Positions 4,204-21,526 of a DNA stretch of 24,000 nucleotides are shown piece by piece. Origin of the DNA: Burkholderiales bacterium RIFCSPLOWO2_02_FULL_57_36 (lineage in GTDB: Bacteria; Pseudomonadota; Gammaproteobacteria; Burkholderiales; Burkholderiaceae_D); NCBI GenBank assembly GCA_001770855.1, contig MESE01000038.1, positions 15,818 through 39,817 on the forward strand, in the 5' to 3' direction. Position 1 is the stretch's first letter. Every line of letters starts with the position of its first letter. The notes under the pieces are model-generated. The model was not told where the DNA came from. It did no database searches and was given only the letters and a program-made list of their open reading frames with translations. The position numbers and the translations under genes are program-made.

Positions 4204-4319
4204 ATAAGGCTCAACCGGCTCCGGCATGCTCCCGGAAGCGGCGAAGTCATGAGGCATCTGATTCCTGTAAAGCATGCGATTGCGTAACGAACCGATAAAT
4301 TTTAGCGAAGGAGAACGTA

Positions 4320-4685
4320 ATGGCCACATCGAAAATCGATAAGTCGAACTGGCAAGCGTATTGCGACCAACTTTCCAAAACACTGACTGGAACAAGCGCC
4401 GAAATAGAGATCGACTCCCTGGCCATCGGGCAGCAGCTGGAAGCAAAATGGCTGCCGTTCCTGGGCATCGTCTATGAGCCAAAAACGAACACGATCGAAA
4501 TCCTGGTCGAAGGACTCGATCACATCATCCATGATCCGCAAGAGTTGTATGTCGATTACGATGCGGTCGGGCTGACCAGCCTTGAAGTGATCAGCGAAGA
4601 CGACGTCCGCCAGATCGTCAAATTGCGCCAGCCGGTCATGTTGCCGCCGCCCGCGGCAGGCACGGGGATTGGACCACGCGCCTGA
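4320..4685 (+). CDS. DUF5335-like conserved hypothetical protein
   Basis: 121-codon ORF with a strong RBS (gaaggagaacgtaATG). The N-terminus (MATSKIDKSNWQAYCDQLSK) and overall layout resemble DUF5335 proteins. A hairpin plus T-tract follows it. Confidence 0.6.
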   Translation: MATSKIDKSNWQAYCDQLSKTLTGTSAEIEIDSLAIGQQLEAKWLPFLGIVYEPKTNTIEILVEGLDHIIHDPQELYVDYDAVGLTSLEVISEDDVRQIVKLRQPVMLPPPAAGTGIGPRA

Positions 4686-4698
4686 CCAGGTGACAAGG

Positions 4699-4735
4699 GC
4701 AGGCGCAGGTTGCCTGCAATATCCTTTTCCTTTTT
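4699..4735 (+). terminator. Probable rho-independent terminator after the DUF5335-like gene
   Basis: GCAGGC (4699-4704) pairs with GCCTGC (4712-4717) around a 7-nt loop. It is followed by the T-rich tract atccttttcctttttc. Confidence 0.45.
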
Positions 4736-4778
4736 CACTCACCCTGCGCGTTCGCTCAGCCGCGTGCCGGTGCACTCG

Positions 4779-5432
4779 CTATCGGCTGATTAGGCTCTCA
4801 TTCGATCTTTGATACGGGCTTGCATACGAGCCAGAGGCGCCGTCGACAATGTTCACTAGCCGCAGCGGTTCCGCACCATGCTCGGTCATCACATCGATCG
4901 CCGCCTGGCCATCGCCGGGTTGCAGGTTGACCGCCCGTATGGCATCCAGCAAAAGCATCACCTTGAAGCCGTGCGACAACGCATCGATTACCGTATTCAA
5001 TACGCAGTAATCGGTTGCCAGCCCGCCGATGAATAGACGTTCAATGCCGCGCGACTTGAGTTGGGCGGCCAGATCGGTTCCTTCAAAACCGGAGTAGGCA
5101 TCTTTTTCCGGTGTTGTGGCTTTCGACACGATTGTGGCGGTATAAGGCAAATTCAGCCCCGCAGGAAACCGCGCTCCGGTCGAGCCTGCGATGCAATGCG
5201 GCGGCCAGATCCCGCCTTGCGGCTTGAACGAGCAATGATCTGACGGATGCCAGTCGCGCGTCGCATAAATCGGCAAAGATCGGCGATTGAACAGGTCGAT
5301 GTAGCGATTCAAAACAGGAACCACTTCATCGCCCGCCCGCACCGCCAGTTTCCCCTCAGGCAAAAAATCGTTTTGCACATCGACGATCACCAAGGCATCT
5401 TTGGGTATCGGCTGGATGGTGTCCGTAGGCAT
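4779..5432 (-). CDS. pncA: Nicotinamidase/pyrazinamidase (isochorismatase-like hydrolase)
   Basis: This is the C-terminal 217 codons of the 440-codon ORF, starting at the internal ATG (MPTDTIQPIPKDALVIVDVQNDF...). It has the Asp-Lys-Cys triad context (VDVQNDF, IVSKAT, GLATDYCV) and the metal-binding motif TRDWHPSDHCSF typical of PncA. The upstream 223 codons of the ORF are antisense to the next gene and are not coding. Confidence 0.85.
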   Translation of the reverse strand: MPTDTIQPIPKDALVIVDVQNDFLPEGKLAVRAGDEVVPVLNRYIDLFNRRSLPIYATRDWHPSDHCSFKPQGGIWPPHCIAGSTGARFPAGLNLPYTATIVSKATTPEKDAYSGFEGTDLAAQLKSRGIERLFIGGLATDYCVLNTVIDALSHGFKVMLLLDAIRAVNLQPGDGQAAIDVMTEHGAEPLRLVNIVDGASGSYASPYQRSNESLISR

Positions 5433-5633
5433 ATTAATTGAGTTCGCAAATGGATAATCGGATAACAGGACGGCGAGCAATTCTTTGCCGCTGCTATCAG
5501 CATATTGATATCGGCCCAAGCGTGAAGACTTCGATACCGTGCGCTTGATGCATGTCAAATGAACAGCCCCGACACCGGAGTATTCGTATGCTGGAGAGTG
5601 ACCAACACAATCATGGCAAACAAGGAGCTGCAA

Positions 5634-6128
5634 ATGAAAAAAATTATTCTCGCAGTGGCATTGGCGGCAACGGCTTTTCCGGGCATGACGCAGCAGCCTG
5701 CGGAAAAAAAACCGCAGGAGCAACAGTCCGCACCGACGCCGGAAGAATTCGACAAGCAATCGGCGCAGATCCAGGAAAACATGAACAGGATGCAGCAGCA
5801 GATGGACAAGATCCGCCAGACCCAGGATCCGCAGGAACGCCAGCGATTGCTTCAGGAACACTGGACCACGATGCAGTCCACGATGACGGCGATGCATGCG
5901 CTGGGCGGCCCCGGTATGATGGGAGGCCGGGGAGGAATGATGGGCGGACCGGGGATGATGGGCTGGGGACGCATGGGCGATTACTACAACAAGCTCACGC
6001 CGGAACAGTTGAAGCAACGCCAGTACATGATGGACCAGCGGCTGCGCCTGCACCAGACGATGATGGAGCAAATGATGCAGCGTCAATACTGGATGGGCCA
6101 ACCGCAGCCGGCGCCGAAGGCGAAATAA
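5634..6128 (+). CDS. Periplasmic Met-rich LTXXQ-motif protein (Spy/CpxP/ZraP-like)
   Basis: The start is moved to ATG 5634, giving an aaggag RBS at 5622-5627 and a signal peptide (MKKIILAVALAATAFPGMTQQ). It carries an LTPEQ (LTXXQ) motif and the GGPGMMGGRGGMMGGPGMMGWGRMG repeat. I count about 22 Met in 164 residues by eye, and it is also Gln-rich. Confidence 0.75.
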   Translation: MKKIILAVALAATAFPGMTQQPAEKKPQEQQSAPTPEEFDKQSAQIQENMNRMQQQMDKIRQTQDPQERQRLLQEHWTTMQSTMTAMHALGGPGMMGGRGGMMGGPGMMGWGRMGDYYNKLTPEQLKQRQYMMDQRLRLHQTMMEQMMQRQYWMGQPQPAPKAK

Positions 6129-6345
6129 TCCGGCCCGGTTCCAGCATGCCCAGCATTACGCGGGACTGCCTTTAAAGCGGACCTCCCTACAGGAGTTCAT
6201 GAACAGCATCATGCCGAAAAAATGGTGACATGCCTGCAAACCGGCCGGCAATCCATTCTCGGAGAATTAATTTCGCGACCGCATTTTTTATGTAATCCAC
6301 ACAGTCTGCAAATTAACGAATGTTGCATTGTGAAAGGATATCGCG

Positions 6346-7158
6346 ATGACTTCAGTCGACCCCTTTGGAAAAACCGACCAGCTTGATGACGCGATGCTGG
6401 AGGCCCTCGCGGTTCGGTTCGAAGCCCGTGGAAAACATCCTCTGTTCTCGAAAATGCTGAACGAGTACCTCGATGCCATGAACCCCGCCAGTACCGCCAC
6501 CGTCCTCGACATGGGCGGTCTGGCGGCTCGGGCCATCGCACGCCGCCCCGGTTTCTCCGGAAGCATTACCGGCGTTGATCTCAGCCCTTACCTCGTGGCG
6601 TCAGCGAATCGTCTGGCTGGCGAGGAAGGTCTTGCCGAACATCTGCATTTTCAAGTCGGGGATGTTCGCAGGCTCGCCTTTGCCGACGGGACATTCGACG
6701 CCCTCGTCGCGCATACGCTGTTGAGCCACGTCGATGATCCATTGCCGGTACTCAAGGAGGCGGCAAGACTTGTGCAGCCCGGCGGAATGATCGGCATCTT
6801 CGACGGCGATTATGCATCCTTGACGTTCGACCAAGCGAACCCTGTCACGGCAAAGGCCTGCGACGAAGCCCTGATTGCCGGCGTGGTCACGAATCCGCGA
6901 ATCATGCGCCAGATGCCGCGAATGCTCCGCGCGGCCGGCCTGGATCTGGCCGCGTCGTTCTCATACGTTCTATCGGAAGCGGGAACAGCCAGCTTCTGGT
7001 CGTCAGCCATCGAGACATATCGGAAGGTAATCCCGAAGGCCGGAACAATGACGGAGGACGAGGCGAATGCCTGGGCGGCGGCCCTGCGCGGTGATTCCGT
7101 CGCGCATGTCTTTTTCGGAAGTTGCAACTACTACGCTTACCTCGCCAGGCGCCCATAG
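6346..7158 (+). CDS. Class I SAM-dependent methyltransferase (Methyltransf_11-like)
   Basis: 270-codon ORF. It shows post-motif-I features (ITGVDLSPYLV, acidic loop FQVGDVRRLAFADGTFDALV, LKEAARLVQPGGMIGIFD). Motif I itself is atypical (VLDMGGLAARA). Confidence 0.8.
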   Translation: MTSVDPFGKTDQLDDAMLEALAVRFEARGKHPLFSKMLNEYLDAMNPASTATVLDMGGLAARAIARRPGFSGSITGVDLSPYLVASANRLAGEEGLAEHLHFQVGDVRRLAFADGTFDALVAHTLLSHVDDPLPVLKEAARLVQPGGMIGIFDGDYASLTFDQANPVTAKACDEALIAGVVTNPRIMRQMPRMLRAAGLDLAASFSYVLSEAGTASFWSSAIETYRKVIPKAGTMTEDEANAWAAALRGDSVAHVFFGSCNYYAYLARRP

Positions 7159-7815: not shown

Positions 7816-7929
7816 GATGGACACGTATAAAAGAAGAAATCACGCCTTTAGCTTGTCACTGAACACGGATGCGCAATCACATCCGTCGGTTCCACTTTGC
7901 CCATATCAGCAACCGGAGGCTACCACTCA

Positions 7930-8973
7930 ATGTTGACATTGCCGACTATCCGCACTCTGACCATGCTTGCGCTCAATATCAGTCTCGGTGCATTCGCCCC
8001 CGGCCTCGCGCATGCCGCGCCCTGCAAGTGCAAGGACATCGATGCCATCGCATCCGAAATCCAGCGTGTGAGCACTGGCGAGGCAGCATGGAAAGAAATT
8101 TTCGCATGGGCGCGAGGTTTGCGCAGGGACGTGGCGATGCCGCAATCAAACGACGAAATGAACACCAAGTTTCTGCAACTGGCTCGCACGCCGCGTTCCA
8201 ACTGGGACCGCACCATGCGCGAACCGATCGTGCAGGTTGAGACGCCGGAAAAGGCCGGCGGGCTTAACGACGATGGCGAGGTCATCATCAACGAGGATTT
8301 TGCCCAGTCACATTGCGACGAGATCGTTGAGGGCGTTCGTGTACACGAACGCGCCCACCGTGACTTCTTCCTGTCACCGGGCAACTTCCTCGAGGGTGGC
8401 CTGATGAGTTCCCGGCATATGAGGCTCCGCTCAGAATCGGAAGTAATCTCTTATAGAACGCAAAAAGCATTTCTCGAGCAGAAACTCGACGCGCTTAAGA
8501 AGCAATGCGGCAAAGTGAGCTTTAAAGACGTCACCATCGATTGCACGATCAAAACACCCGTCTGCTCGATACGCACCGGCCAAAAGATCGCCGGCTCCGT
8601 GTGCGGAGACCCGCTCAAGGAAACCTGGACCATCACCCCGCATTATTTTGCCGAAGGCTGTGGCGCACCCTCCGGCGGCACGCGCGGCGATAAGCCCTTC
8701 GACAACGATTGCGTGAAGGCCGGCAGCGATGAAGAAAAGCGGCGCGCTTCAATTTACACCAATGCGCGAGCCATGGGCGGCGGCGGTTGGATGTGCGTCT
8801 ATAGCGAGGGGCCGCAGCCGAAAATTACCATCCGGTCGTTCCGCTTGTCCATGTGCGATGGCGCGGCGGAACAAACGATAACCGTCAACGCTGAAGTCTC
8901 AAAGAGTTGCGGCGATCCATCACAGCCGCCGGTCGTACCCGCGGCGCCACCGAGTTTACCGCCGAATTCCTGA
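7930..8973 (+). CDS. Secreted Cys-rich hypothetical protein with HExxH motif
   Basis: The start is moved to ATG 7930, with a ggagg RBS at 7915-7919. It has a signal peptide ending ...PGLAHA/AP. HERAH lies at nt 8344-8358. The C-terminal half has many Cys, and the tail is Pro-rich (PSQPPVVPAAPPSLPPNS). I recognise no family. Confidence 0.65.
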   Translation: MLTLPTIRTLTMLALNISLGAFAPGLAHAAPCKCKDIDAIASEIQRVSTGEAAWKEIFAWARGLRRDVAMPQSNDEMNTKFLQLARTPRSNWDRTMREPIVQVETPEKAGGLNDDGEVIINEDFAQSHCDEIVEGVRVHERAHRDFFLSPGNFLEGGLMSSRHMRLRSESEVISYRTQKAFLEQKLDALKKQCGKVSFKDVTIDCTIKTPVCSIRTGQKIAGSVCGDPLKETWTITPHYFAEGCGAPSGGTRGDKPFDNDCVKAGSDEEKRRASIYTNARAMGGGGWMCVYSEGPQPKITIRSFRLSMCDGAAEQTITVNAEVSKSCGDPSQPPVVPAAPPSLPPNS

Positions 8974-13064: not shown

Positions 13065-13571
13065 TCAATCCACCTTGATGTTCATCTTGCGCGGTGCACC
13101 TATGCTTGCCTTGGGCAGCTCCACGCGCAGCACACCGTTTTTGTAAGTTGCCTTGGCCTGATCGATCAGGACCGCGGCAGGCAACGGCATCGCGCGCTGG
13201 AAATTGCCGTAGGCGCATTGCAGCACTCGATAGCGGCCTTCGGTGCTTTCACGCTCAAAATGCTTTTCGCCGCTGACGACAAGCATGTTGTCCTGCACCT
13301 CGATTTCCAGATCCTGCTTTTCCATTCCCGGCACTTCCATTTGGACAACGACGCGCTTGTCGTCTTCAAACAGGTTTCCACCCAGCATCGACCACGTACC
13401 GGACGGGATGTAAAACATGTCATCGACCGCGTCTTTTGCGGGCAGATTGGTTTGCTCTTTTGGCTTGAACCGGGTGAGTGCGCTCGCCGCCGATTGGCGC
13501 AAATGCTGCCAACCCTCGGTGACGGAGCCCAGGAACGAATTGAAACCCTGCCGGATGTCATCCATGTTCAT
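13065..13571 (-). CDS. Small heat-shock protein, Hsp20/alpha-crystallin family (third in operon)
   Basis: 168 codons with an aaagga RBS. It has an alpha-crystallin core (VVVQMEVPGMEKQDLEIEVQDNMLVVSGEK...GNFQRAMPLPAAV...ATYKNGVLRVELPK) and a C-terminal I-K-V motif. Confidence 0.9.
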   Translation of the reverse strand: MNMDDIRQGFNSFLGSVTEGWQHLRQSAASALTRFKPKEQTNLPAKDAVDDMFYIPSGTWSMLGGNLFEDDKRVVVQMEVPGMEKQDLEIEVQDNMLVVSGEKHFERESTEGRYRVLQCAYGNFQRAMPLPAAVLIDQAKATYKNGVLRVELPKASIGAPRKMNIKVD

Positions 13572-13592
13572 CGCAGTTTCCTTTCAAATCAG

Positions 13593-13621
13593 GATTGCCC
13601 CGCGGCGGACCGGGGGCAATC
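13593..13621 (-). promoter_or_regulatory. Intercistronic GC-rich stem-loop between sHsp genes 2 and 3
   Basis: GATTGCCCC (13593-13601) and GGGGCAATC (13613-13621) form a perfect 9-bp stem around an 11-nt loop. It starts 4 nt after the stop of the middle Hsp20 gene. On the transcript it is followed by CUGAUUUGAAAGG. Confidence 0.4.
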
Positions 13622-13625
13622 ACCG

Positions 13626-14009
13626 TCATGTCACGTTGATCTGGATCTTGCGCGGCTGCGCGTGCGCCGCTTTCGGAATTCGCAGCTTGAGCACGCCGTT
13701 ACTGAGTTCGGCCGAAGTCTTTTCGCCGTCCAGGTCCTTGGACAGCGTGAATATGCGGCGGTAGCGCGGCACTTTCACTTCCGCATAGCTCGACTCCATG
13801 TCTTGCGGAAGATTCAACTCGACATCGCCCTCGATCGTCAGGCTGTCGGTTTCCAGTTGCAGCTTCAGTTTGTCCTTGGATACGCCGGGCAGATCGGCAA
13901 ACAGGGTAATGCCGCCAGCGTCTTCAATGACATCGACCAAAGGCAGCAAGGCGGCCTCGGAAGAAACCGCATTGCTCCGCTTCTCCGTCACATTGGTATT
14001 CTGGTTCAT
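13626..14009 (-). CDS. Small heat-shock protein, Hsp20/alpha-crystallin family (second in operon)
   Basis: 127 codons with an aaggag RBS. It has GITLFADLPGVSKDKLKLQLETDSLTIEG...YRRIFTLSKDLDGEKTSAELSNGVLKLRIPK and a C-terminal I-Q-I motif. Confidence 0.9.
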   Translation of the reverse strand: MNQNTNVTEKRSNAVSSEAALLPLVDVIEDAGGITLFADLPGVSKDKLKLQLETDSLTIEGDVELNLPQDMESSYAEVKVPRYRRIFTLSKDLDGEKTSAELSNGVLKLRIPKAAHAQPRKIQINVT

Positions 14010-14039
14010 GATTTTTTCTCCTTGATTAATGGGCAGAAA

Positions 14040-14492
14040 TTAATGGACAGAAATACGGCGCGGCTGGACCGCTTCGCGCCGCTTGACACTGACATGCAGC
14101 ACGCCCTCGCGATAATTGGCGGAAACGCCATCCGGATCGACATCGTCCGGCAGGCTCACTACACGGCGGAACGATCCGGCAAAACGCTCGTTGATGTGGA
14201 CGGCCGCATTTTCTTCCTGACTCGACAGGTCATCGGGCCGCTCGCCTGCGATGGTGAGCACGCCGCGTTCAAGATTGACTTCAATGCTGTCCGGATTCAA
14301 TCCTGGCACAAACGCATACAGTTCCACCGATTGAGCAGTGCTGCCGATATTCAAAGCCGGAAATCCGCCGCGTCCAATGCCGCGGATGGTGGGTCCGAAT
14401 TCAAATGCTTGCTGCAGTTCCCGCTGCAGGCGATCCATTTCAGAGAAGATATCCCGAGAGAACATCGATCGTTGCATCATTTCATTCTCCAT
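14040..14492 (-). CDS. Small heat-shock protein, Hsp20/alpha-crystallin family (first in operon)
   Basis: 150-codon ORF. It has VELYAFVPGLNPDSIEVNLERGVLTIAGER...GSFRRVVSLPDDVDPDGVSANYREGVLHVSVKR and a C-terminal I-S-V motif. The ATG at 14480 (MMQRS...) is the likelier start, since ggaga sits 5 nt upstream of it. Confidence 0.9.
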   Translation of the reverse strand: MENEMMQRSMFSRDIFSEMDRLQRELQQAFEFGPTIRGIGRGGFPALNIGSTAQSVELYAFVPGLNPDSIEVNLERGVLTIAGERPDDLSSQEENAAVHINERFAGSFRRVVSLPDDVDPDGVSANYREGVLHVSVKRREAVQPRRISVH

Positions 14493-14566
14493 TCAGTTAG
14501 GTTGATTGAGTTAGACCGGTCTGGTGATCCTGGTTCGTGTATTAAAAATATGTTTTAAGCGCAGGA

Positions 14567-14606
14567 TTTCAAGGGCTTGATATTCAGTCTATCGAGAACC
14601 ATGTGT
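14567..14606. promoter_or_regulatory. Back-to-back divergent heat-shock-like (sigma-32-type) promoter core
   Basis: TTTCAAGGG (14567-14575) reads CCCTTGAAA on the minus strand, which matches the sigma-32 -35 consensus. It abuts CTTGATA (14576-14582) on the plus strand. The plus-strand -10 candidate aaCCATgT (14597-14604) lies after a 14-bp spacer. The minus-strand -10 is weaker (aaaCATaT, or a sigma-70-like TATTTT at 16 bp). Confidence 0.35.
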
Positions 14607-14643
14607 TGTAAAACAAGATGAAGCGAAAAAAAGGAGAACTCGG

Positions 14644-15591
14644 TTGGAATTCAAGGACTACTACCAAATCCTGGGGGTCGCGCGGGACGCGCCCGCGGAC
14701 GACATCAAGAAGGCGTATCGCAGGCTGGCGCGCAAGTACCATCCCGACGTTTCCAAGGAGCCTGACGCCGAACGAAAAATGAAGGAACTCAACGAGGCGA
14801 ATGCCGTACTGTCCGATCCGGAAAAGCGGGCTGCCTATGACAACGTCGGTCAAAGCTTCCATGCCGGCCAGGAATTCCGGCCGCCGCCCAATTGGGATGC
14901 CGGATTCGAGTTTTCCGATCGCGGCTTTTCCGGCGCCGAGTCCGCCGATTTCAGCGATTTCTTTTCCGAGCTTTTCGGCAGCCGCATGGGACGCGGCTCC
15001 CCTCGCGAGCACGGCCATTTTCGTTCTCGCGGAGAAGATCACCATGCCAAGGTTCTACTCGATCTGCAAGATGCCTACCATGGCGCATCGCGCACCCTGA
15101 CCTTGCGCACACCGCAGACGGATGCGCGCGGCCATGTGAAGCTGTCCGAGCGCGCCCTGGACGTGCGCATCCCGAAAGGCATCCATGAGGGACAGCTGAT
15201 TCGCCTGACCGGTCAAGGCAGCCCCGGACACGGCGGCGGGCAATCCGGCGACTTGTACCTGGAAGTTCATTTCAAGCCGCATACGCGCTACCGCGCCGAA
15301 GGCCGCGACGTGTATGCGACGTTGCCGATCGCGCCATGGGAAGCGGCGTTGGGCGCCAGCGTCAAGGCGCCGGTGCCGGACGGCGCGGTCGAGGTGCGCA
15401 TTCCCGAAGGATCGCAGTCGGGCCGCAAATTGCGCCTTAAAGGACGTGGAATTCCCGGATCGACGCCCGGCGATCTTTACCTGGTGCTGGAAATCGTGCT
15501 GCCGCCTGCCAGCAACCCGAAAGCGCGCGAACTTTATCAAGCGATGGAGCGAGAACTCAACTTCGACCCGCGCCGGGGTCTGGGAGCATGA
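14644..15591 (+). CDS. cbpA: Curved-DNA-binding protein CbpA (DnaJ-like co-chaperone without zinc finger)
   Basis: TTG start 7 nt after aaggag. It has a J-domain ([63 protein letters not shown]), a G/F-like linker, no CxxCxGxG repeats, and DnaJ C-terminal domains. It overlaps the next gene by ATGA. Confidence 0.9.
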
Positions 15592-15905
15592 CCATGGCAC
15601 AAGAACATATTGCCCTGCTGCTTGACGACGCATGCCTGACCGTTGATGAACTTGCGGTAAGCTGCAGCGTCAGCCGCGAGTGGGTCATTGAGCACGTGCA
15701 AGCCGGCGTGCTGCCCGCCGAGTCCGGCGCAGACCCGGCGCAATGGTCTTTCACCGGACGCGACCTGTTGCGCACCCGCCGCCTGTTTGATCTGGAGCGC
15801 AGTTTCGACGCCAATCCGGAACTGGCAGGCCTGGTGACGGATCTTCTTGATGAAATGGAGCGGTTGCGGGTTCGCTTGAGGCGCGCCGGCCTGCCGCCCG
15901 ACTGA
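15588..15905 (+). CDS. cbpM: Chaperone modulator CbpM (MerR-like)
   Basis: 105-codon ORF overlapping the cbpA stop. The ATG at 15594 has better spacing to gggag. The size, position directly after cbpA, the [29 protein letters not shown]-like segment and the C-terminal [12 protein letters not shown] helix all fit CbpM. Confidence 0.75.
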
Positions 15906-15940
15906 AATCACGATATTGAATTTACAGAGGAGTCCGTCAT

Positions 15941-16372
15941 ATGTCGTTGCATATAGTTTGTCCGGAATGCCAGGCGGTCAATCGCGTTCCCGATGAACGT
16001 GCCGGCGAGTCTCCCGATTGCGGACGCTGCCATCGTCCGTTGTTTTCCGGGAAACCGGTCAACCTGAGCGCAACTGATTTCGACCGGCAACTGAATCGCA
16101 GCGACATTCCGCTGCTGGTCGATTTCTGGGCGCCCTGGTGCGGACCCTGCCGCACGATGGCGCCTGCATACGAACAGGCTGCCGCCCAACTGGAGCCGAA
16201 TTTCCGGGTGGCCAAGATCAATACCGAGGAAGAACAATCGCTTGGGGCGCATTATGGGATACGCAGTATTCCGACCTTGGCTTTGTTCTCGCATGGACGG
16301 GAAATTGCGCGCCAGGCCGGCGCCATGGGAGTGGCCGACATCATTCGATGGGCGCGTGCCGCGGCAAAATGA
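15941..16372 (+). CDS. trxC: Thioredoxin 2 (zinc-finger thioredoxin)
   Basis: 143 codons with a gaggag RBS. The N-terminal double CxxC zinc finger (CPECQ...CGRC) followed by the WAPWCGPC active site is the TrxC architecture. Confidence 0.9.
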   Translation: MSLHIVCPECQAVNRVPDERAGESPDCGRCHRPLFSGKPVNLSATDFDRQLNRSDIPLLVDFWAPWCGPCRTMAPAYEQAAAQLEPNFRVAKINTEEEQSLGAHYGIRSIPTLALFSHGREIARQAGAMGVADIIRWARAAAK

Positions 16373-17301: not shown

Positions 17302-18321
17302 TTATCTGCGTTGCGGCAGCTGATGATAAGCCCGTGCGGCTGGAATTTCCTCTTCCGAATACAGCTGGCCTAACAGGGCCTCTATTCTTCCCAGTTTCTG
17401 CTGTTCGCTTAAATTCATTTGCGTGATGATGTTTTTCTGCTGTAAAAATTCCTGCTGCCTTCGCTCCCAGTCCAGTTTCTGGACCTCCATCTCGCCGATG
17501 CTTTTGGCGGCTTCCGCACCGGCATGCCGTTCCCGCAGCTGCTGCACCTGTACCTCCGATGCACCTTGCTGACGCAGCGCCGCAACGCCCTGCTCCATCA
17601 GTAACGCGGATCGCGATGCGTCGAGATCCGAATTGAGATCGGCAGCCCCTTTAGGAAGCGTGTTTTGCAGCACGTCGATTCGCGCCAGCTTTTCCTGCAC
17701 CGTCAATTTCGGGTCCGCCTCCATCATCGCGATCTGGATACCATAGCGGTCTTGCGCCTCTTGCACGGCGAACAGCGCATCGGCCACTGGCGCACCGAGA
17801 TGCTGACGGCGCAGCGCAATCACTTTGTTGAACATATCTTCAGGCGCTATCGTGTTCCCGGCCGCGAAATCGGCACTGAGCGCCATCTCCGCCTTGAAAT
17901 AGCGCATATATCCATCCAGAATACGCGATGCCTGTTGTGCCGCATGCTGCGGCAACCCCGCGATGGCGGATCGCTCAATAGCCTGCAATTCATGCCCTGT
18001 CGCATTCATCGGCAATTCCGAAATCAGCATCTCGAGCCTGACTCTGGTGTCGGCATCGAGAATGAGATTGCCTTTCCCGTCAAGCTTGAACACACCCGTG
18101 TCGGCAACCGCGGATTCGGCACGCGATGCGATCGGCGCCATATACTCGCCCTTGGCAAAGGGATTGGCGTCGACCGTGCCGGAGCCTTGCACCGCGGCCG
18201 ACGCGGAAGGCGGCGCCGGTTCTTCCTGCGGAGATGAACGCATCAGCCAGGCCGCGCCCGCCACGATCACGAGGGCGGCCGTTGCCATCAGAAAACCGTA
18301 TAACAGGCGCTTGTCGTTCAT
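17302..18321 (-). CDS. Lipase-specific foldase (Lif / lipase chaperone family)
   Basis: 339 codons with an N-terminal membrane anchor (LLYGFLMATAALVIVAGAAWLM) and a Pro/Ala-rich linker. A long helical domain aligns by eye along its length with Pseudomonas LipH. Examples: GNLILDADTRVRLEMLISE vs GNLLITRDIRNLFDYFLSA, LTVQEKLARIDVLQNTLP vs LSAEEKAAAIDRLRASLP, and LSEQQKLGRIEALL vs LSEADRRAAIERLA. It is the last gene of the lipase operon. Confidence 0.8.
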   Translation of the reverse strand: MNDKRLLYGFLMATAALVIVAGAAWLMRSSPQEEPAPPSASAAVQGSGTVDANPFAKGEYMAPIASRAESAVADTGVFKLDGKGNLILDADTRVRLEMLISELPMNATGHELQAIERSAIAGLPQHAAQQASRILDGYMRYFKAEMALSADFAAGNTIAPEDMFNKVIALRRQHLGAPVADALFAVQEAQDRYGIQIAMMEADPKLTVQEKLARIDVLQNTLPKGAADLNSDLDASRSALLMEQGVAALRQQGASEVQVQQLRERHAGAEAAKSIGEMEVQKLDWERRQQEFLQQKNIITQMNLSEQQKLGRIEALLGQLYSEEEIPAARAYHQLPQRR

Positions 18322-18354
18322 GTCGCTTGCCTTGATATCCTCATCGTTCCCGAT

Positions 18355-19233
18355 CTATTGCGGCGCAGGCACTTCAACCTTGGCCGCGTGCCTTATCTGC
18401 TGCACACGGGCAGTGACTTTCTCATGCAGGATTTCCTGACGCAGCCAGGTTTGCGCCTGTGCAAACGGCGGCTTGTCCAGAAAACGCGCCCCATGCAGCT
18501 GAATGATATGCCACCCGTACTGCGTCTGCACGGGAATCCGGGAATAGCCATCGGGCTTCAGTGTTTCGATGCCGGCGACAAACGATGGTTCCAGTTGGCT
18601 GGCCATCATCCAGCCGAGCATGCCGTCTTTTTTTGTATTCGCGTCCAGCGTGTGTTTGCGTGCGGCGGCCTGGAATTTTGCGCCCTTGTCGAGTTCCCTG
18701 ATCACGGCTTTGGCTTCCTGCTCGCTATTCAAAAGGATATGACTGACGTGATAGGAGCGCTCCGGTTTTAGCGCGTCGTAACGCACCTTGATTTCTGCCG
18801 GCTCGATCCGGATTTCCGCGATGATGTCGCGCACCAGTTCCTGCTGCAGCAATGTCTTGTATTGCAATTCGGCTTCGGCGGCAATTTCCGGCCGCAGATG
18901 AATACCGCGCTCGCGTGCTTTTTGCGACAGGATTTCCATGCTCAGCAAATCCTCGAACACGACCTTCTGATCGATGACCGGAGCGCCTTTCGGCTTGTTT
19001 GCCGCGCCCTCGTCCGGCGCGTCATAGGGATTGGCAATTTCGGTACGCGCCTTGACCATTCCGTCGAACAGTGCGCGCCGCACCGGCTGGCCGTTAACCG
19101 TGACCAGAATCGTGTCGCCCTTGACTGCTGTCTGCGCCGGTTTCGTTTTGTCGGCGGCATATGTCGGCAGGCTGACCGTGAATAGAACCAGTGCACCGGC
19201 AAGTTGCCTGCGTATTGCGCCGGGGATTTTCAT
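18355..19233 (-). CDS. Secreted PpiC/parvulin-type peptidyl-prolyl cis-trans isomerase
   Basis: 292 codons with a ggagag RBS and a signal peptide (...LFTVSLPTYA/ADK). It has a parvulin domain (YHVSHILLNSEQEAKAVIRELDKGAKFQAAARKHT...GMLGWMMASQLEPSF...YGWHIIQLHG). Confidence 0.85.
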   Translation of the reverse strand: MKIPGAIRRQLAGALVLFTVSLPTYAADKTKPAQTAVKGDTILVTVNGQPVRRALFDGMVKARTEIANPYDAPDEGAANKPKGAPVIDQKVVFEDLLSMEILSQKARERGIHLRPEIAAEAELQYKTLLQQELVRDIIAEIRIEPAEIKVRYDALKPERSYHVSHILLNSEQEAKAVIRELDKGAKFQAAARKHTLDANTKKDGMLGWMMASQLEPSFVAGIETLKPDGYSRIPVQTQYGWHIIQLHGARFLDKPPFAQAQTWLRQEILHEKVTARVQQIRHAAKVEVPAPQ

Positions 19234-19318
19234 ATCGCGACTCTCCAGAAAAACGCCTTGATCGTTAACTGCGCAGCTCGCTGCGAAAATGCGGCATTGT
19301 GCGCAATGGCAAACGGAA

Positions 19319-19356
19319 GCGGAAAGCGGCGACGCAACAGCGCCGCCGCTTTCCGC
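19319..19356 (-). terminator. Strong stem-loop between lipase and PPIase genes (internal terminator/attenuator candidate)
   Basis: GCGGAAAGCGGCG (19319-19331) and CGCCGCTTTCCGC (19344-19356) form a perfect 13-bp stem with a 12-nt loop. It begins 15 nt after the lipase stop. On the transcript it is followed by UUCCGUUUGCC, a modest U-tract. Confidence 0.45.
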
Positions 19357-19371
19357 AGTTACGCGCAGTTG

Positions 19372-20025
19372 TTATTGCAGACGCTGACGTACCAGGTTGT
19401 ACACGCTCGCATCACTGAGCAGACCGAGGTGGCTGACGTTGGCGGTTTGAGTGCTCCATCCGCATTGGGCGTTCGCCGCCGGAATCACGATGCCGTCAGT
19501 TGCGGACCACAGGGAACGATCGCATCCTTGACCCGCCAGTTCATTGATGAACGAAGAACCGTAGCGCATGTCGAAGCAAGCCGGCGAAACGCATCCATAG
19601 GCCCACGATGTACCTTTATGCGGAGTACCCAGGGTCACAAAGCGGCGCATTTTTGCGGCACCGCCCAGCTTGACACGGAACCAGCGCGATACCAGCCCGC
19701 CGTTGGAGTGCGCAACAATGTCGACCAGTGCATTGCCGTTGTTGGAACGCACGGTATTGACATAGCTGCTCAATTGGCTGGCACTGCTCTTATTGCTGTA
19801 CACGAACGAGTTGTAGCTGAAGCGGTACAGCTTGGATGACGGATACCCGCTGGCGGTAAAGCGAGGGACCATGGTATTCCAGTTGAAGTTGCCGCCGGCA
19901 TAACCGTGTATGAACACGATCGGTCCGGTTTGTGCGTTTGCCGCCGCCATCCCTGACAGCGATAAAACCGCTGCGGCCGCGAATGACCAGAATAGTTTTT
20001 TTGTTGTTTGTGCTAATTGATGCAT
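19372..20025 (-). CDS. Secreted minimal triacylglycerol lipase/esterase (lipase class 2, Bacillus LipA-like)
   Basis: 217 codons with an aagaggaga RBS and a signal peptide (...LSGMAAANA/QTG). It aligns by eye with B. subtilis LipA: PIVFIHGYAGGNFNW vs PVVMVHGIGGASFNF; VDIVAHSNGG vs VDIVAHSMGG (AxSxG nucleophile); SATDGIVI vs SSADMIVM (Asp); SHLGLL vs GHIGLL (His). Confidence 0.85.
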   Translation of the reverse strand: MHQLAQTTKKLFWSFAAAAVLSLSGMAAANAQTGPIVFIHGYAGGNFNWNTMVPRFTASGYPSSKLYRFSYNSFVYSNKSSASQLSSYVNTVRSNNGNALVDIVAHSNGGLVSRWFRVKLGGAAKMRRFVTLGTPHKGTSWAYGCVSPACFDMRYGSSFINELAGQGCDRSLWSATDGIVIPAANAQCGWSTQTANVSHLGLLSDASVYNLVRQRLQ

Positions 20026-20497: not shown

Positions 20498-21526
20498 ATG
20501 TCTCAACTCGCGCCTACCCTTTCATCCGGATTTGTCAATGCGTTCCTGGACGCAGCCGAAGTCGCGCCGGAGAAAAGGGATCCACTGCTCAGCCAAGCGG
20601 GAGTTCCGTCAAGCCTGCTTCAGGACGACGCAGCACGCGTCACGGAAGATCAGTTCGCCACCCTGTATCGTTTGCTTACGGTGAAGCTCGATGACGAGTT
20701 GCCGAATCTGCTGTCTCATCCGCTGCGAAGCGGTGCGATGAAGCTTGCCGGACTAAGCGTTATCGATGCGCCGACAATCGAAGTTGTGCTTAACCGTTTC
20801 TCGCGTTTTCAGCGCTTGATCATTCACGATTTTGAAATGCATTTCGTGCGCGGGGCGGAGCTCAGCGTGCTCGCGATCAAGGAACCTGAATCGGGGCGGC
20901 GCTGCAAGACCATGGGAATCGTAATGATCCTGAAGGTAGTGCACGGACTCACGTCCTGGCTGGTGGGCCGCGAAGTCCCGCTGGTACGCCTCGATTTTGC
21001 ATTTGCACGACCCGCATATGCGGACGAATTCCAGAATCTTTTTCCAGGTCCGGTATTCTTCGACCAGCCATGCAGCCGACTTGTGCTGGAATCCAGGCAG
21101 ATGAACCTGCGCGTGCAGCGCAACGCCGGAGACCTGAGGCAGTTCATGTCGAGGCTGCCGCGCGACTGGATGTTTGTCCGCATGAAGGAGCGGCTGGCCT
21201 CGCATCAAATACGCGAACACCTGCTGCGCCATGGCATGGAAAAAGCGCATGTCGAGCAGGTGGCCAAGGCGTTGAATGTTTCGGTGCGCACCCTGAGCCG
21301 CAGGCTGGAAGATGAAAACACTGTGTTTCAGACAGTCAAGGATGAGGTGCGGCGCGATATCGCGATAGACCGTTTGACCAATTCGGCTGCGCCGATTTCC
21401 ACGATTGCCGCTGAGCTTGGCTTCGGCGACGCATCCTCATTCCACCGCGCGTTCCGCACGTGGACCGGTATGACGCCGAGCGCATACCGTCAGGCAGCGG
21501 ACGAACAGCGGCCGGCCAGCATTTGA
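20498..21526 (+). CDS. AraC family transcriptional regulator (Arabinose_bd-type N-terminal domain)
   Basis: 342 codons. It has a C-terminal dual HTH (VAKALNVSVRTLSRRLEDENTVFQTV...ISTIAAELGFGDASSFHRAFRTWTGMTPSAYR). The N-terminus (SSGFVNAFLDAAEVAPEKRDPLLSQAGV) is typical of this subfamily. It is divergent from the lipase operon. Confidence 0.85.
   Translation: MSQLAPTLSSGFVNAFLDAAEVAPEKRDPLLSQAGVPSSLLQDDAARVTEDQFATLYRLLTVKLDDELPNLLSHPLRSGAMKLAGLSVIDAPTIEVVLNRFSRFQRLIIHDFEMHFVRGAELSVLAIKEPESGRRCKTMGIVMILKVVHGLTSWLVGREVPLVRLDFAFARPAYADEFQNLFPGPVFFDQPCSRLVLESRQMNLRVQRNAGDLRQFMSRLPRDWMFVRMKERLASHQIREHLLRHGMEKAHVEQVAKALNVSVRTLSRRLEDENTVFQTVKDEVRRDIAIDRLTNSAAPISTIAAELGFGDASSFHRAFRTWTGMTPSAYRQAADEQRPASI

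Follow-up and report, generated by a model that had tools for sequence, protein, structure and literature searches.

A conserved lipase–parvulin–foldase gene module linked to a minimal LipA-like lipase of Proteobacteria

The window described here is a 24,000-nucleotide stretch of contig MESE01000038.1 from the metagenome-assembled genome (MAG) of Burkholderiales bacterium RIFCSPLOWO2_02_FULL_57_36. It carries on its minus strand three consecutive genes for a small secreted lipase, a periplasmic parvulin and a membrane-anchored lipase-specific foldase (Lif). This arrangement recurs far beyond chance and probably represents a conserved module of three genes for the secretion and maturation of a minimal, lid-less LipA-like lipase/esterase found in Proteobacteria. 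It is a real and conserved variant of the lipase–Lif system, with a mechanism that we infer below, and it is apparently undescribed: a full-text search covering few subscription journals returned no published account in which a Lif is combined with a class-2 lipase or a parvulin, and only work on lipase–Lif pairs of subfamilies I.1/I.2. The original prediction, which did not know this combination as described, is in line with this. Singly, the genes are already labelled by annotation pipelines as esterase/lipase, peptidylprolyl isomerase and lipase chaperone.

The three open reading frames (ORFs) were re-read at the predicted positions (Table 1) and are separated by 138 nt (lipase–parvulin) and 33 nt (parvulin–Lif). 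The same three products were called independently on a metagenome contig that is nearly identical (L080). The parvulin is 100% identical to A3I66_04880 of the source organism. All three profile assignments that had been proposed for checking, PF01674, PF03280 and PF00639/PF13616, were matched above cut-off.

Conservation of the gene arrangement

An alignment-based scan with one genome per species yielded 79 loci, whose ORFs were then searched with iterated profiles. They comprise 61 loci of the proteobacterial clade and 18 loci of distant homologues; eight of the 61 are cut by a contig end, leaving 53 that are informative. One or more lipase genes followed by the parvulin and Lif genes, in the same order, are found in 42 of the 53. 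The triad, for which a synteny survey had been suggested, is thus conserved. Six of these loci have a second parvulin gene after Lif, and several have two to three tandem lipases. Three loci (L022, L052, and L060) have lipase and Lif without the parvulin, two (L026 and L028) have lipase and parvulin without Lif, and in six the lipase stands alone. The carriers span Burkholderiales and several gammaproteobacterial families and include Oxalobacteraceae, Caldimonas, Rhizobacter/Rubrivivax, Alkalilimnicola, Marinobacter, Oleiphilaceae, Allohahella, Halomonas, and Bermanella. Neither helper is encoded near any of the 18 distant homologues, which come from Actinobacteria, spirochaetes and others.

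On average, identity to the window proteins amounts to 60% (lipase), 28% (parvulin) and 25% (Lif), and the three proteins diverge together (r = 0.91-0.96), with the helpers evolving much faster than the enzyme. Such co-divergence with fast helpers fits what would be expected of chaperones that track one client.

The source MAG holds a second, paralogous full module (L085:4224-6875), with the lipase at 4224-4859, the parvulin at 5001-5882 and Lif at 5895-6875. Its lipase (A3I66_18110) is about 67% and its parvulin (A3I66_18115) about 46% identical to the window proteins. Immediately downstream of this second module, a gene (L085:8095-9012) encodes a secreted hydrolase of 305 aa that has a GMSSGG box but matches nothing in Pfam or the PDB, perhaps resembling depolymerases of medium-chain-length polyhydroxyalkanoates. 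It is followed by a gene for a short membrane-anchored Lif-like protein (L085:9131-9871; PF03280, 26.5 bits) with an RKVFDDFL motif. Together they may form another hydrolase–foldase pair, with a non-lipase client.

For the two loci without Lif, a failure of search sensitivity was considered and rejected, since the position of Lif is taken by an integrase in L026 and by a GspE-like ATPase in L028. In L026 a phage-type integrase and then foreign-looking genes occupy the expected site (L026:8145-9650), which suggests that a mobile element displaced or destroyed Lif in this genome. Of the six lipases that stand alone, at least two (L040 and L048) belong to MAGs with helper-linked copies on other contigs.

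Two or three tandem lipase genes precede one helper set in L001, L022, L024, L034, L039, L042, L045, L050, L051, and L053, mainly in Oleiphilaceae; these loci resemble the lip1-lip2-lipO cluster of Burkholderia vietnamiensis. A further locus, L016, belongs to an Alkalilimnicola MAG and encodes proteins with 61%, 28%, and 30% identity to the window lipase, parvulin, and Lif, respectively; its parvulin retains one catalytic His. Because all three of its proteins are closer to the Burkholderiales versions than to those of Marinobacter/Oleiphilus, their sequences hint at a horizontal transfer of the whole module.

Architecture of the lipase

The lipase precursor begins with a Sec-type signal peptide, read from the sequence, that ends in ANA/QTG. 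Its oxyanion region is PIVFIHGYAGG, its nucleophile box AHS107NG, and D177 and H199 complete the set of predicted catalytic residues. Four cysteines (C145, C150, C168, and C188) are all located in the C-terminal half. These motifs and cysteines, which the original prediction had pointed out, are invariant in 23 family members, as are S107, D177, and H199.

With Pfam Lipase_2 (PF01674) the lipase scores 45.9 bits (cut-off 20.3; 6.5e-12), and only residues 35-134 are covered. A sequence search of the PDB returns LipA-type lipases over the full length of the window enzyme at 1e-13 to 1e-16, and I.2 lipases over its N-terminal half only at about 1e-6. Herein, the alignment to Bacillus subtilis LipA extends over residues 32-216 and places S107, D177, and H199 on the Ser, Asp, and His of LipA, as had been proposed for the Asp and His contexts; the LipA probe sequence used for the comparison of clade residues below agrees with the LipA segments aligned in the PDB search. 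A profile of the family scores about 75 bits (1e-20) against LipA-type lipases versus about 45 bits against I.2 lipases. This profile alignment is confined to the first ~110 residues for both groups, and the C-terminal half is therefore family-specific.

The AlphaFold2 (AF2) model of the lipase has a predicted local distance difference test score (pLDDT) of 85 and a predicted template modelling (TM) score of 0.81; residues 1-30 are of low confidence or helical, which fits the signal peptide. Foldseek ranks 6nkc and 1i6w as best matches (TM score 0.78-0.83, normalised to the target), with PAL and Acinetobacter baumannii LipA at ranks 42 to 46. The predicted fold is hence that of a minimal lid-less α/β-hydrolase of about 19-20 kDa.

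Two features set the family apart. Where LipA has GGANRLT, the family has GTPHKGT; a GTPHxG motif is typically found in lipases of family I, those of I.1/I.2 included. In addition, the pair C168/C188 is present in all 74 lipases of the proteobacterial clade versus none of 19 helper-less distant homologues; the pair C145/C150 is found in 74 of 74 and 13 of 19, respectively. This pattern would be consistent with two disulfides formed in the periplasm. From the sequence, profile, fold, and residue results it follows that the lipase is I.4-like in size and fold but belongs to a separate proteobacterial clade. The placement in class 2 next to LipA thus stands by Pfam, the PDB sequence and profile searches, and the predicted fold. 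Of the assignment to family I.4, the small size and LipA-like fold hold, but the GTPHxG motif and the clade-specific cysteines put the enzyme in a clade of its own.

Among possible named relatives, LipIAF5-2 was considered and rejected as an unrelated 32-kDa lipase. The L016 lipase is apparently identical to the functional-metagenomics "clone F5-11" lipase E5KC17, as far as the regions compared by eye show. In the full-text literature searched, with its few subscription journals, no mention was found of LC-Est3 (AIT56389.1) or of the "clone F5-11" lipase (ADR10200.1/E5KC17).

Architecture of the Lif foldase

The third gene product belongs to the Lif family by Pfam, by sequence matches to solved Lifs, and by predicted fold, as the original prediction had proposed. 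It scores 97 bits against Lipase_chap (PF03280; cut-off 25.7, 1.8e-27) over profile positions 2-191 of 192, and aligns end to end with the NCBIfam lipase secretion chaperone (PRK01294 models) at 7e-38. The best NCBIfam score is 130.6 bits versus an equivalog cut-off of 285, and the protein stays below all four equivalog cut-offs; it therefore represents a distinct subfamily and no equivalog of a characterised Lif. In the PDB it matches 9g8u_B (A. baumannii LipB, 1.8e-9) and 2es4_D (Burkholderia glumae Lif, 5e-4).

The AF2 model consists of a transmembrane helix at residues 4-25, in agreement with the proposed membrane anchor, a low-confidence or disordered linker at residues 26-73, and 11 helices spanning residues 90-338 with a pLDDT above 90. 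The only significant Foldseek matches are 9g8u_B and 2es4_D/E, and the MD1 domain is likewise a meaningful match. The lipase-binding motif in MD1 of Lifs is Rx1x2FDY(F/C)L(S/T)A. Here it is a variant, TRVRLEMLISE, which aligns with TRDCFEYFITQ of 9g8u_B: Arg and Ser are retained, but Leu, Glu, and Met stand in place of Phe, Asp, and Tyr. Across the clade the consensus reads aLD[IV][LF][LV][AS], and Tyr gives way to an aliphatic residue throughout. Residues W285, R288, and R171 are conserved in the clade. The lipase neighbouring this Lif is of the class-2/LipA-like type and not of the I.1/I.2 type.

Architecture of the parvulin

Behind a signal peptide ending in TYA/ADK, the parvulin has a chaperone region at its N-terminus, a parvulin domain spanning about residues 145-261, and a C-terminal helix. 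The Pfam Rotamase families PF00639/PF13616/PF13145 match with 40-51 bits, above their thresholds. Residues 11-287 align with Helicobacter pylori HP0175 (6bhf, 9e-19), and SurA, PrsA, and PEB4/Cbf2 are also matched; the protein is therefore a chaperone-type parvulin and not a bare peptidyl-prolyl isomerase domain.

Both catalytic histidines are present in the window copy (SHILL, GWHII), and the pair is also retained in Noviherbaspirillum and Caldimonas. The label of isomerase given in the original prediction is thus compatible with the window protein, but it does not extend to the family, since Massilia/Telluria and virtually all gammaproteobacterial orthologues have lost the pair. Because of this loss in many orthologues, their sequences suggest that the conserved role would be chaperoning rather than isomerisation.

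Relatives with at least 41% identity always reside inside modules (L082 and L085). The next relatives, at about 30% identity, are BolA-linked housekeeping genes. The parvulin belongs to a dedicated clade apart from the housekeeping parvulins, and by this break in gene context the idea of a general housekeeping parvulin was rejected. In the Rhizobacter/Rubrivivax-type loci (L009, L012-L015, L017, and L082), two parvulins flank Lif in the order lipase–parvulin–Lif–parvulin, and of these the second carries catalytic motifs that are closer to the canonical ones.

Hairpin and operon structure

A terminator-like hairpin starts 16 nt past the lipase stop codon. It has a 17-bp stem with 13 G-C pairs, a 4-nt loop, and a weak T-tail (TTCCGTTTGC). 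The 138-nt gap folds with -63.9 kcal/mol (z = -3.17 versus shuffles). In nearly all related loci a comparably strong hairpin lies behind the last lipase gene, often with a T-run and the look of a textbook terminator; the shuffled control covers the window gap only. The parvulin and Lif genes abut or overlap across loci. A sigma-70 scan of the minus strand between hairpin and parvulin gave no promoter, which is weak negative evidence. The hairpin probably attenuates transcription, which would give much enzyme and little helper. The original prediction placed all three genes in one operon. Their common strand and the tight packing of parvulin and Lif keep this plausible, but it is qualified by the hairpin that follows the lipase gene both in the window and in most relatives.

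Proposed maturation route and its alternatives

In the proposed route, the lipase would be exported by Sec and its two disulfides would form in the periplasm. The dedicated PrsA/SurA-like parvulin would hold it in a folding-competent state and, in the window organism, may also isomerise a prolyl bond. The membrane-anchored Lif would then activate the lipase as a steric chaperone, as Lifs do for I.1/I.2 lipases; once active, the lipase would be released and then secreted, probably through a type II system. A precedent for such a two-step route is Pseudomonas aeruginosa LipA, for which the holdase Skp acts ahead of the foldase LipH (PMC9638971). What the analysis shows is the identity of the genes, the predicted folds, the linkage across loci, the separate parvulin clade, and the hairpin. 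The contacts between the proteins, their order of action, the disulfides, the secretion route, and the substrate of the enzyme are all predicted from the genes and their products; helper dependence we infer from gene linkage only. Herein, the linkage to Lif and parvulin in 42 of 53 loci argues against helper-independent folding of the lipase. The wider claim, that Lif is not confined to I.1/I.2 lipases and that a widespread proteobacterial clade of minimal LipA-like lipases depends on its own Lif and a dedicated parvulin-derived holdase in a three-component pathway, is about evenly balanced.

Several points weigh against a maturation module. The nearest solved relative, Bacillus LipA, folds without helpers. 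The stand-alone, parvulin-less, and Lif-less loci (six, three, and two) indicate that the helpers need not be encoded in cis, and part of the co-divergence reflects shared phylogeny. The Lif lacks the canonical Tyr of RxxFDY(F/C)L(S/T)A and falls short of the NCBIfam equivalog scores. Finally, the general parvulin chaperones SurA and PpiD gave no help to P. aeruginosa LipA in vitro (PMC9638971).

Some of these points feed an unlikely alternative in which the main task of Lif, and perhaps of the parvulin too, is secretion and not folding: the lipase would fold by itself, and Lif would retain it, hand it to the type II machinery, or keep it inactive in the periplasm, which would protect the cell's own lipids. 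The LipA-like fold of the lipase would suit this, given that LipA folds unaided, as would the degenerate MD1 motif, the NCBIfam name "lipase secretion chaperone," and the GspE-like secretion ATPase directly after the parvulin in L028. The solved Lifs that are matched (2es4 and 9g8u), however, are folding catalysts that embrace their lipase, the AF2 model keeps the full 11-helix scaffold at high confidence, and an extensive binding interface would suit the fast co-divergence with the client. Quite improbable is also that only lipase and Lif form a functional pair, with the parvulin serving Lif itself, another exported protein, or outer-membrane proteins. The three loci that keep lipase and Lif without it are in keeping with such a client, as are its non-conserved catalytic residues and the inefficacy of general parvulin chaperones on P. 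aeruginosa LipA (PMC9638971). The position of the parvulin between lipase and Lif in 42 loci speaks against it, together with the two copies that flank Lif in some loci, the separation of its clade from the BolA-linked parvulins, and the retention of lipase–parvulin without Lif in two loci.

Linkage without shared function is strongly disfavoured and highly improbable. Here Lif would serve an I.1/I.2 lipase encoded elsewhere, and the three genes would be neighbours by accident or hitch-hiking. Lifs can act in trans, because P. aeruginosa LipC uses a remote Lif (PMC12096544). Yet 42 of 53 loci, from two proteobacterial classes, keep the same order, the same MAG holds a second paralogous module, neither helper accompanies any of the 18 distant homologues, and no I.1/I.2-type lipase was found in any of the 79 loci with an unverified P. 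aeruginosa LipA probe sequence, in a scan that covered the loci themselves. On this last result, Lif as the accidental neighbour of a canonical lipase was rejected.

Genes around the module

The genes around the module are unrelated to it and comprise a PAS-GGDEF-EAL protein, a heat-shock cluster, AraC regulators, and NrsF. The start of a divergent AraC-family gene lies 472 nt upstream of the lipase, and in the Massilia and Telluria loci L007, L008, and L010 a comparable divergent gene is the immediate upstream neighbour of the lipase. It is a possible regulator of the module. As a conserved module partner it was rejected, since it occupies this place only in Massilia and Telluria. The heat-shock genes form a stress/chaperone cluster that adjoins the module. 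Antisense to its three HSP20 genes runs a 446-aa ORF, most likely spurious. The 1190-aa signalling protein is of a type typical of cyclic-di-GMP turnover.

Table 1. Features of the lipase module and of its surroundings; positions are those of the 24,000-nucleotide window.
Feature	Position	Strand	Evidence
Secreted minimal lipase/esterase, 217-aa precursor	19372-20025	-	Pfam, PDB match, AF2 and Foldseek
Terminator-like hairpin	19319-19356	-	Terminator scan and fold of the 138-nt gap
Periplasmic PrsA/PEB4/HP0175-type parvulin chaperone, 292 aa	18355-19233	-	Pfam Rotamase families, PDB match
Membrane-anchored lipase-specific foldase (Lif), 339 aa	17302-18321	-	Pfam Lipase_chap, PDB match, AF2 and Foldseek
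AraC-family regulator (Arabinose_bd and HTH_18), divergent	20498-21526	+	Pfam
Stress/chaperone cluster (three HSP20, cbpA, cbpM, thioredoxin 2)	13065-16372		
Three HSP20 genes	13065-13571, about 13626-14009, 14040-14492	-	Pfam
cbpA	14644-15591		
cbpM	15588-15905		
Thioredoxin 2	15941-16372		
446-aa ORF, most likely spurious	13218-14558	+	No Pfam match
Signalling protein, 1190 aa	181-3753	+	Multiple PAS, GGDEF and EAL
358-aa ORF	7897-8973	+	No Pfam family at E <= 1e-4

Implications

The structural cause of Lif-dependence is still debated, and this dependence is the main obstacle to the heterologous expression of I.1/I.2 lipases. If the module acts as proposed, the range of the Lif chaperone would be wider than the I.1/I.2 lipases and would include a lid-less client of 19 kDa. 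A client of this size would lend itself to study far more readily than the larger I.1/I.2 lipases, with the helper-free Bacillus LipA as its natural comparator; the module would thus offer a natural minimal system for asking why a hydrolase needs a steric chaperone. A parvulin dedicated to one client would be unusual, as such chaperones are normally generalists, and the repeated loss of its histidines would amount to a natural experiment that separates chaperone from isomerase function. The lipase family includes metagenome-derived esterases and members from polyester- and oil-degrading genera (Caldimonas, Rhizobacter, Marinobacter, and Oleiphilus), and co-expression of the two helpers may be key to producing these enzymes. 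A genome survey of 2025 treats dependence on Lif as confined to subfamilies I.1/I.2 (PMC12096544).

Comparison with known systems

The lipase–Lif pairs of subfamilies I.1/I.2 are the closest known systems. Examples include LipA/LipH of P. aeruginosa, LipA/LipB of B. glumae (2es4), and LipA/LipB of A. baumannii (9g8u). They share the Lif architecture of an anchor, a variable linker, and an 11-helix scaffold, to which the window Lif is homologous by sequence and predicted fold. In both, the Lif gene lies downstream of the gene for a Sec-exported lipase, and tandem lipases may share one Lif. In contrast, the window client is lid-less, about 19 kDa in size, and nearer to Bacillus LipA; a parvulin gene lies between lipase and Lif; and the hairpin parts the enzyme gene from the helper genes. 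Furthermore, the window MD1 is devoid of the canonical Phe and Tyr, and the Lif does not reach any of the four equivalog cut-offs of NCBIfam.

On the side of the enzyme, the I.4 lipases B. subtilis LipA and Lip_vut1 (1i6w and 6nkc) agree with the window lipase in size, the lack of a lid, the A-H-S-x-G box, the oxyanion region, and an alignable triad, and provide the best fold match. Compared with B. subtilis LipA, the window enzyme is proteobacterial and predicted to be routed through the periplasm, and it has four invariant cysteines, of which LipA has none at those positions in the alignment. It carries GTPHKGT, and its C-terminal half aligns to no solved lipase by profile. Its gene, moreover, is linked to those of two chaperones.

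The parvulin resembles PrsA, PEB4 (Cbf2), HP0175, Par27, and SurA, which are exported and possess one parvulin domain between N- and C-terminal chaperone segments. However, those proteins serve many secreted or outer-membrane proteins, whereas the window clade is genetically dedicated to one lipase module and has lost the catalytic histidines in many lineages. The proposed division of labour is most similar to the hand-over from Skp to LipH in P. aeruginosa, where a holdase prevents aggregation and a specific foldase then activates the lipase (PMC9638971), as would be the case in the window module. Skp is a general, trimeric chaperone that is encoded elsewhere, whereas the candidate holdase of the window is a parvulin-type protein encoded within the module itself.

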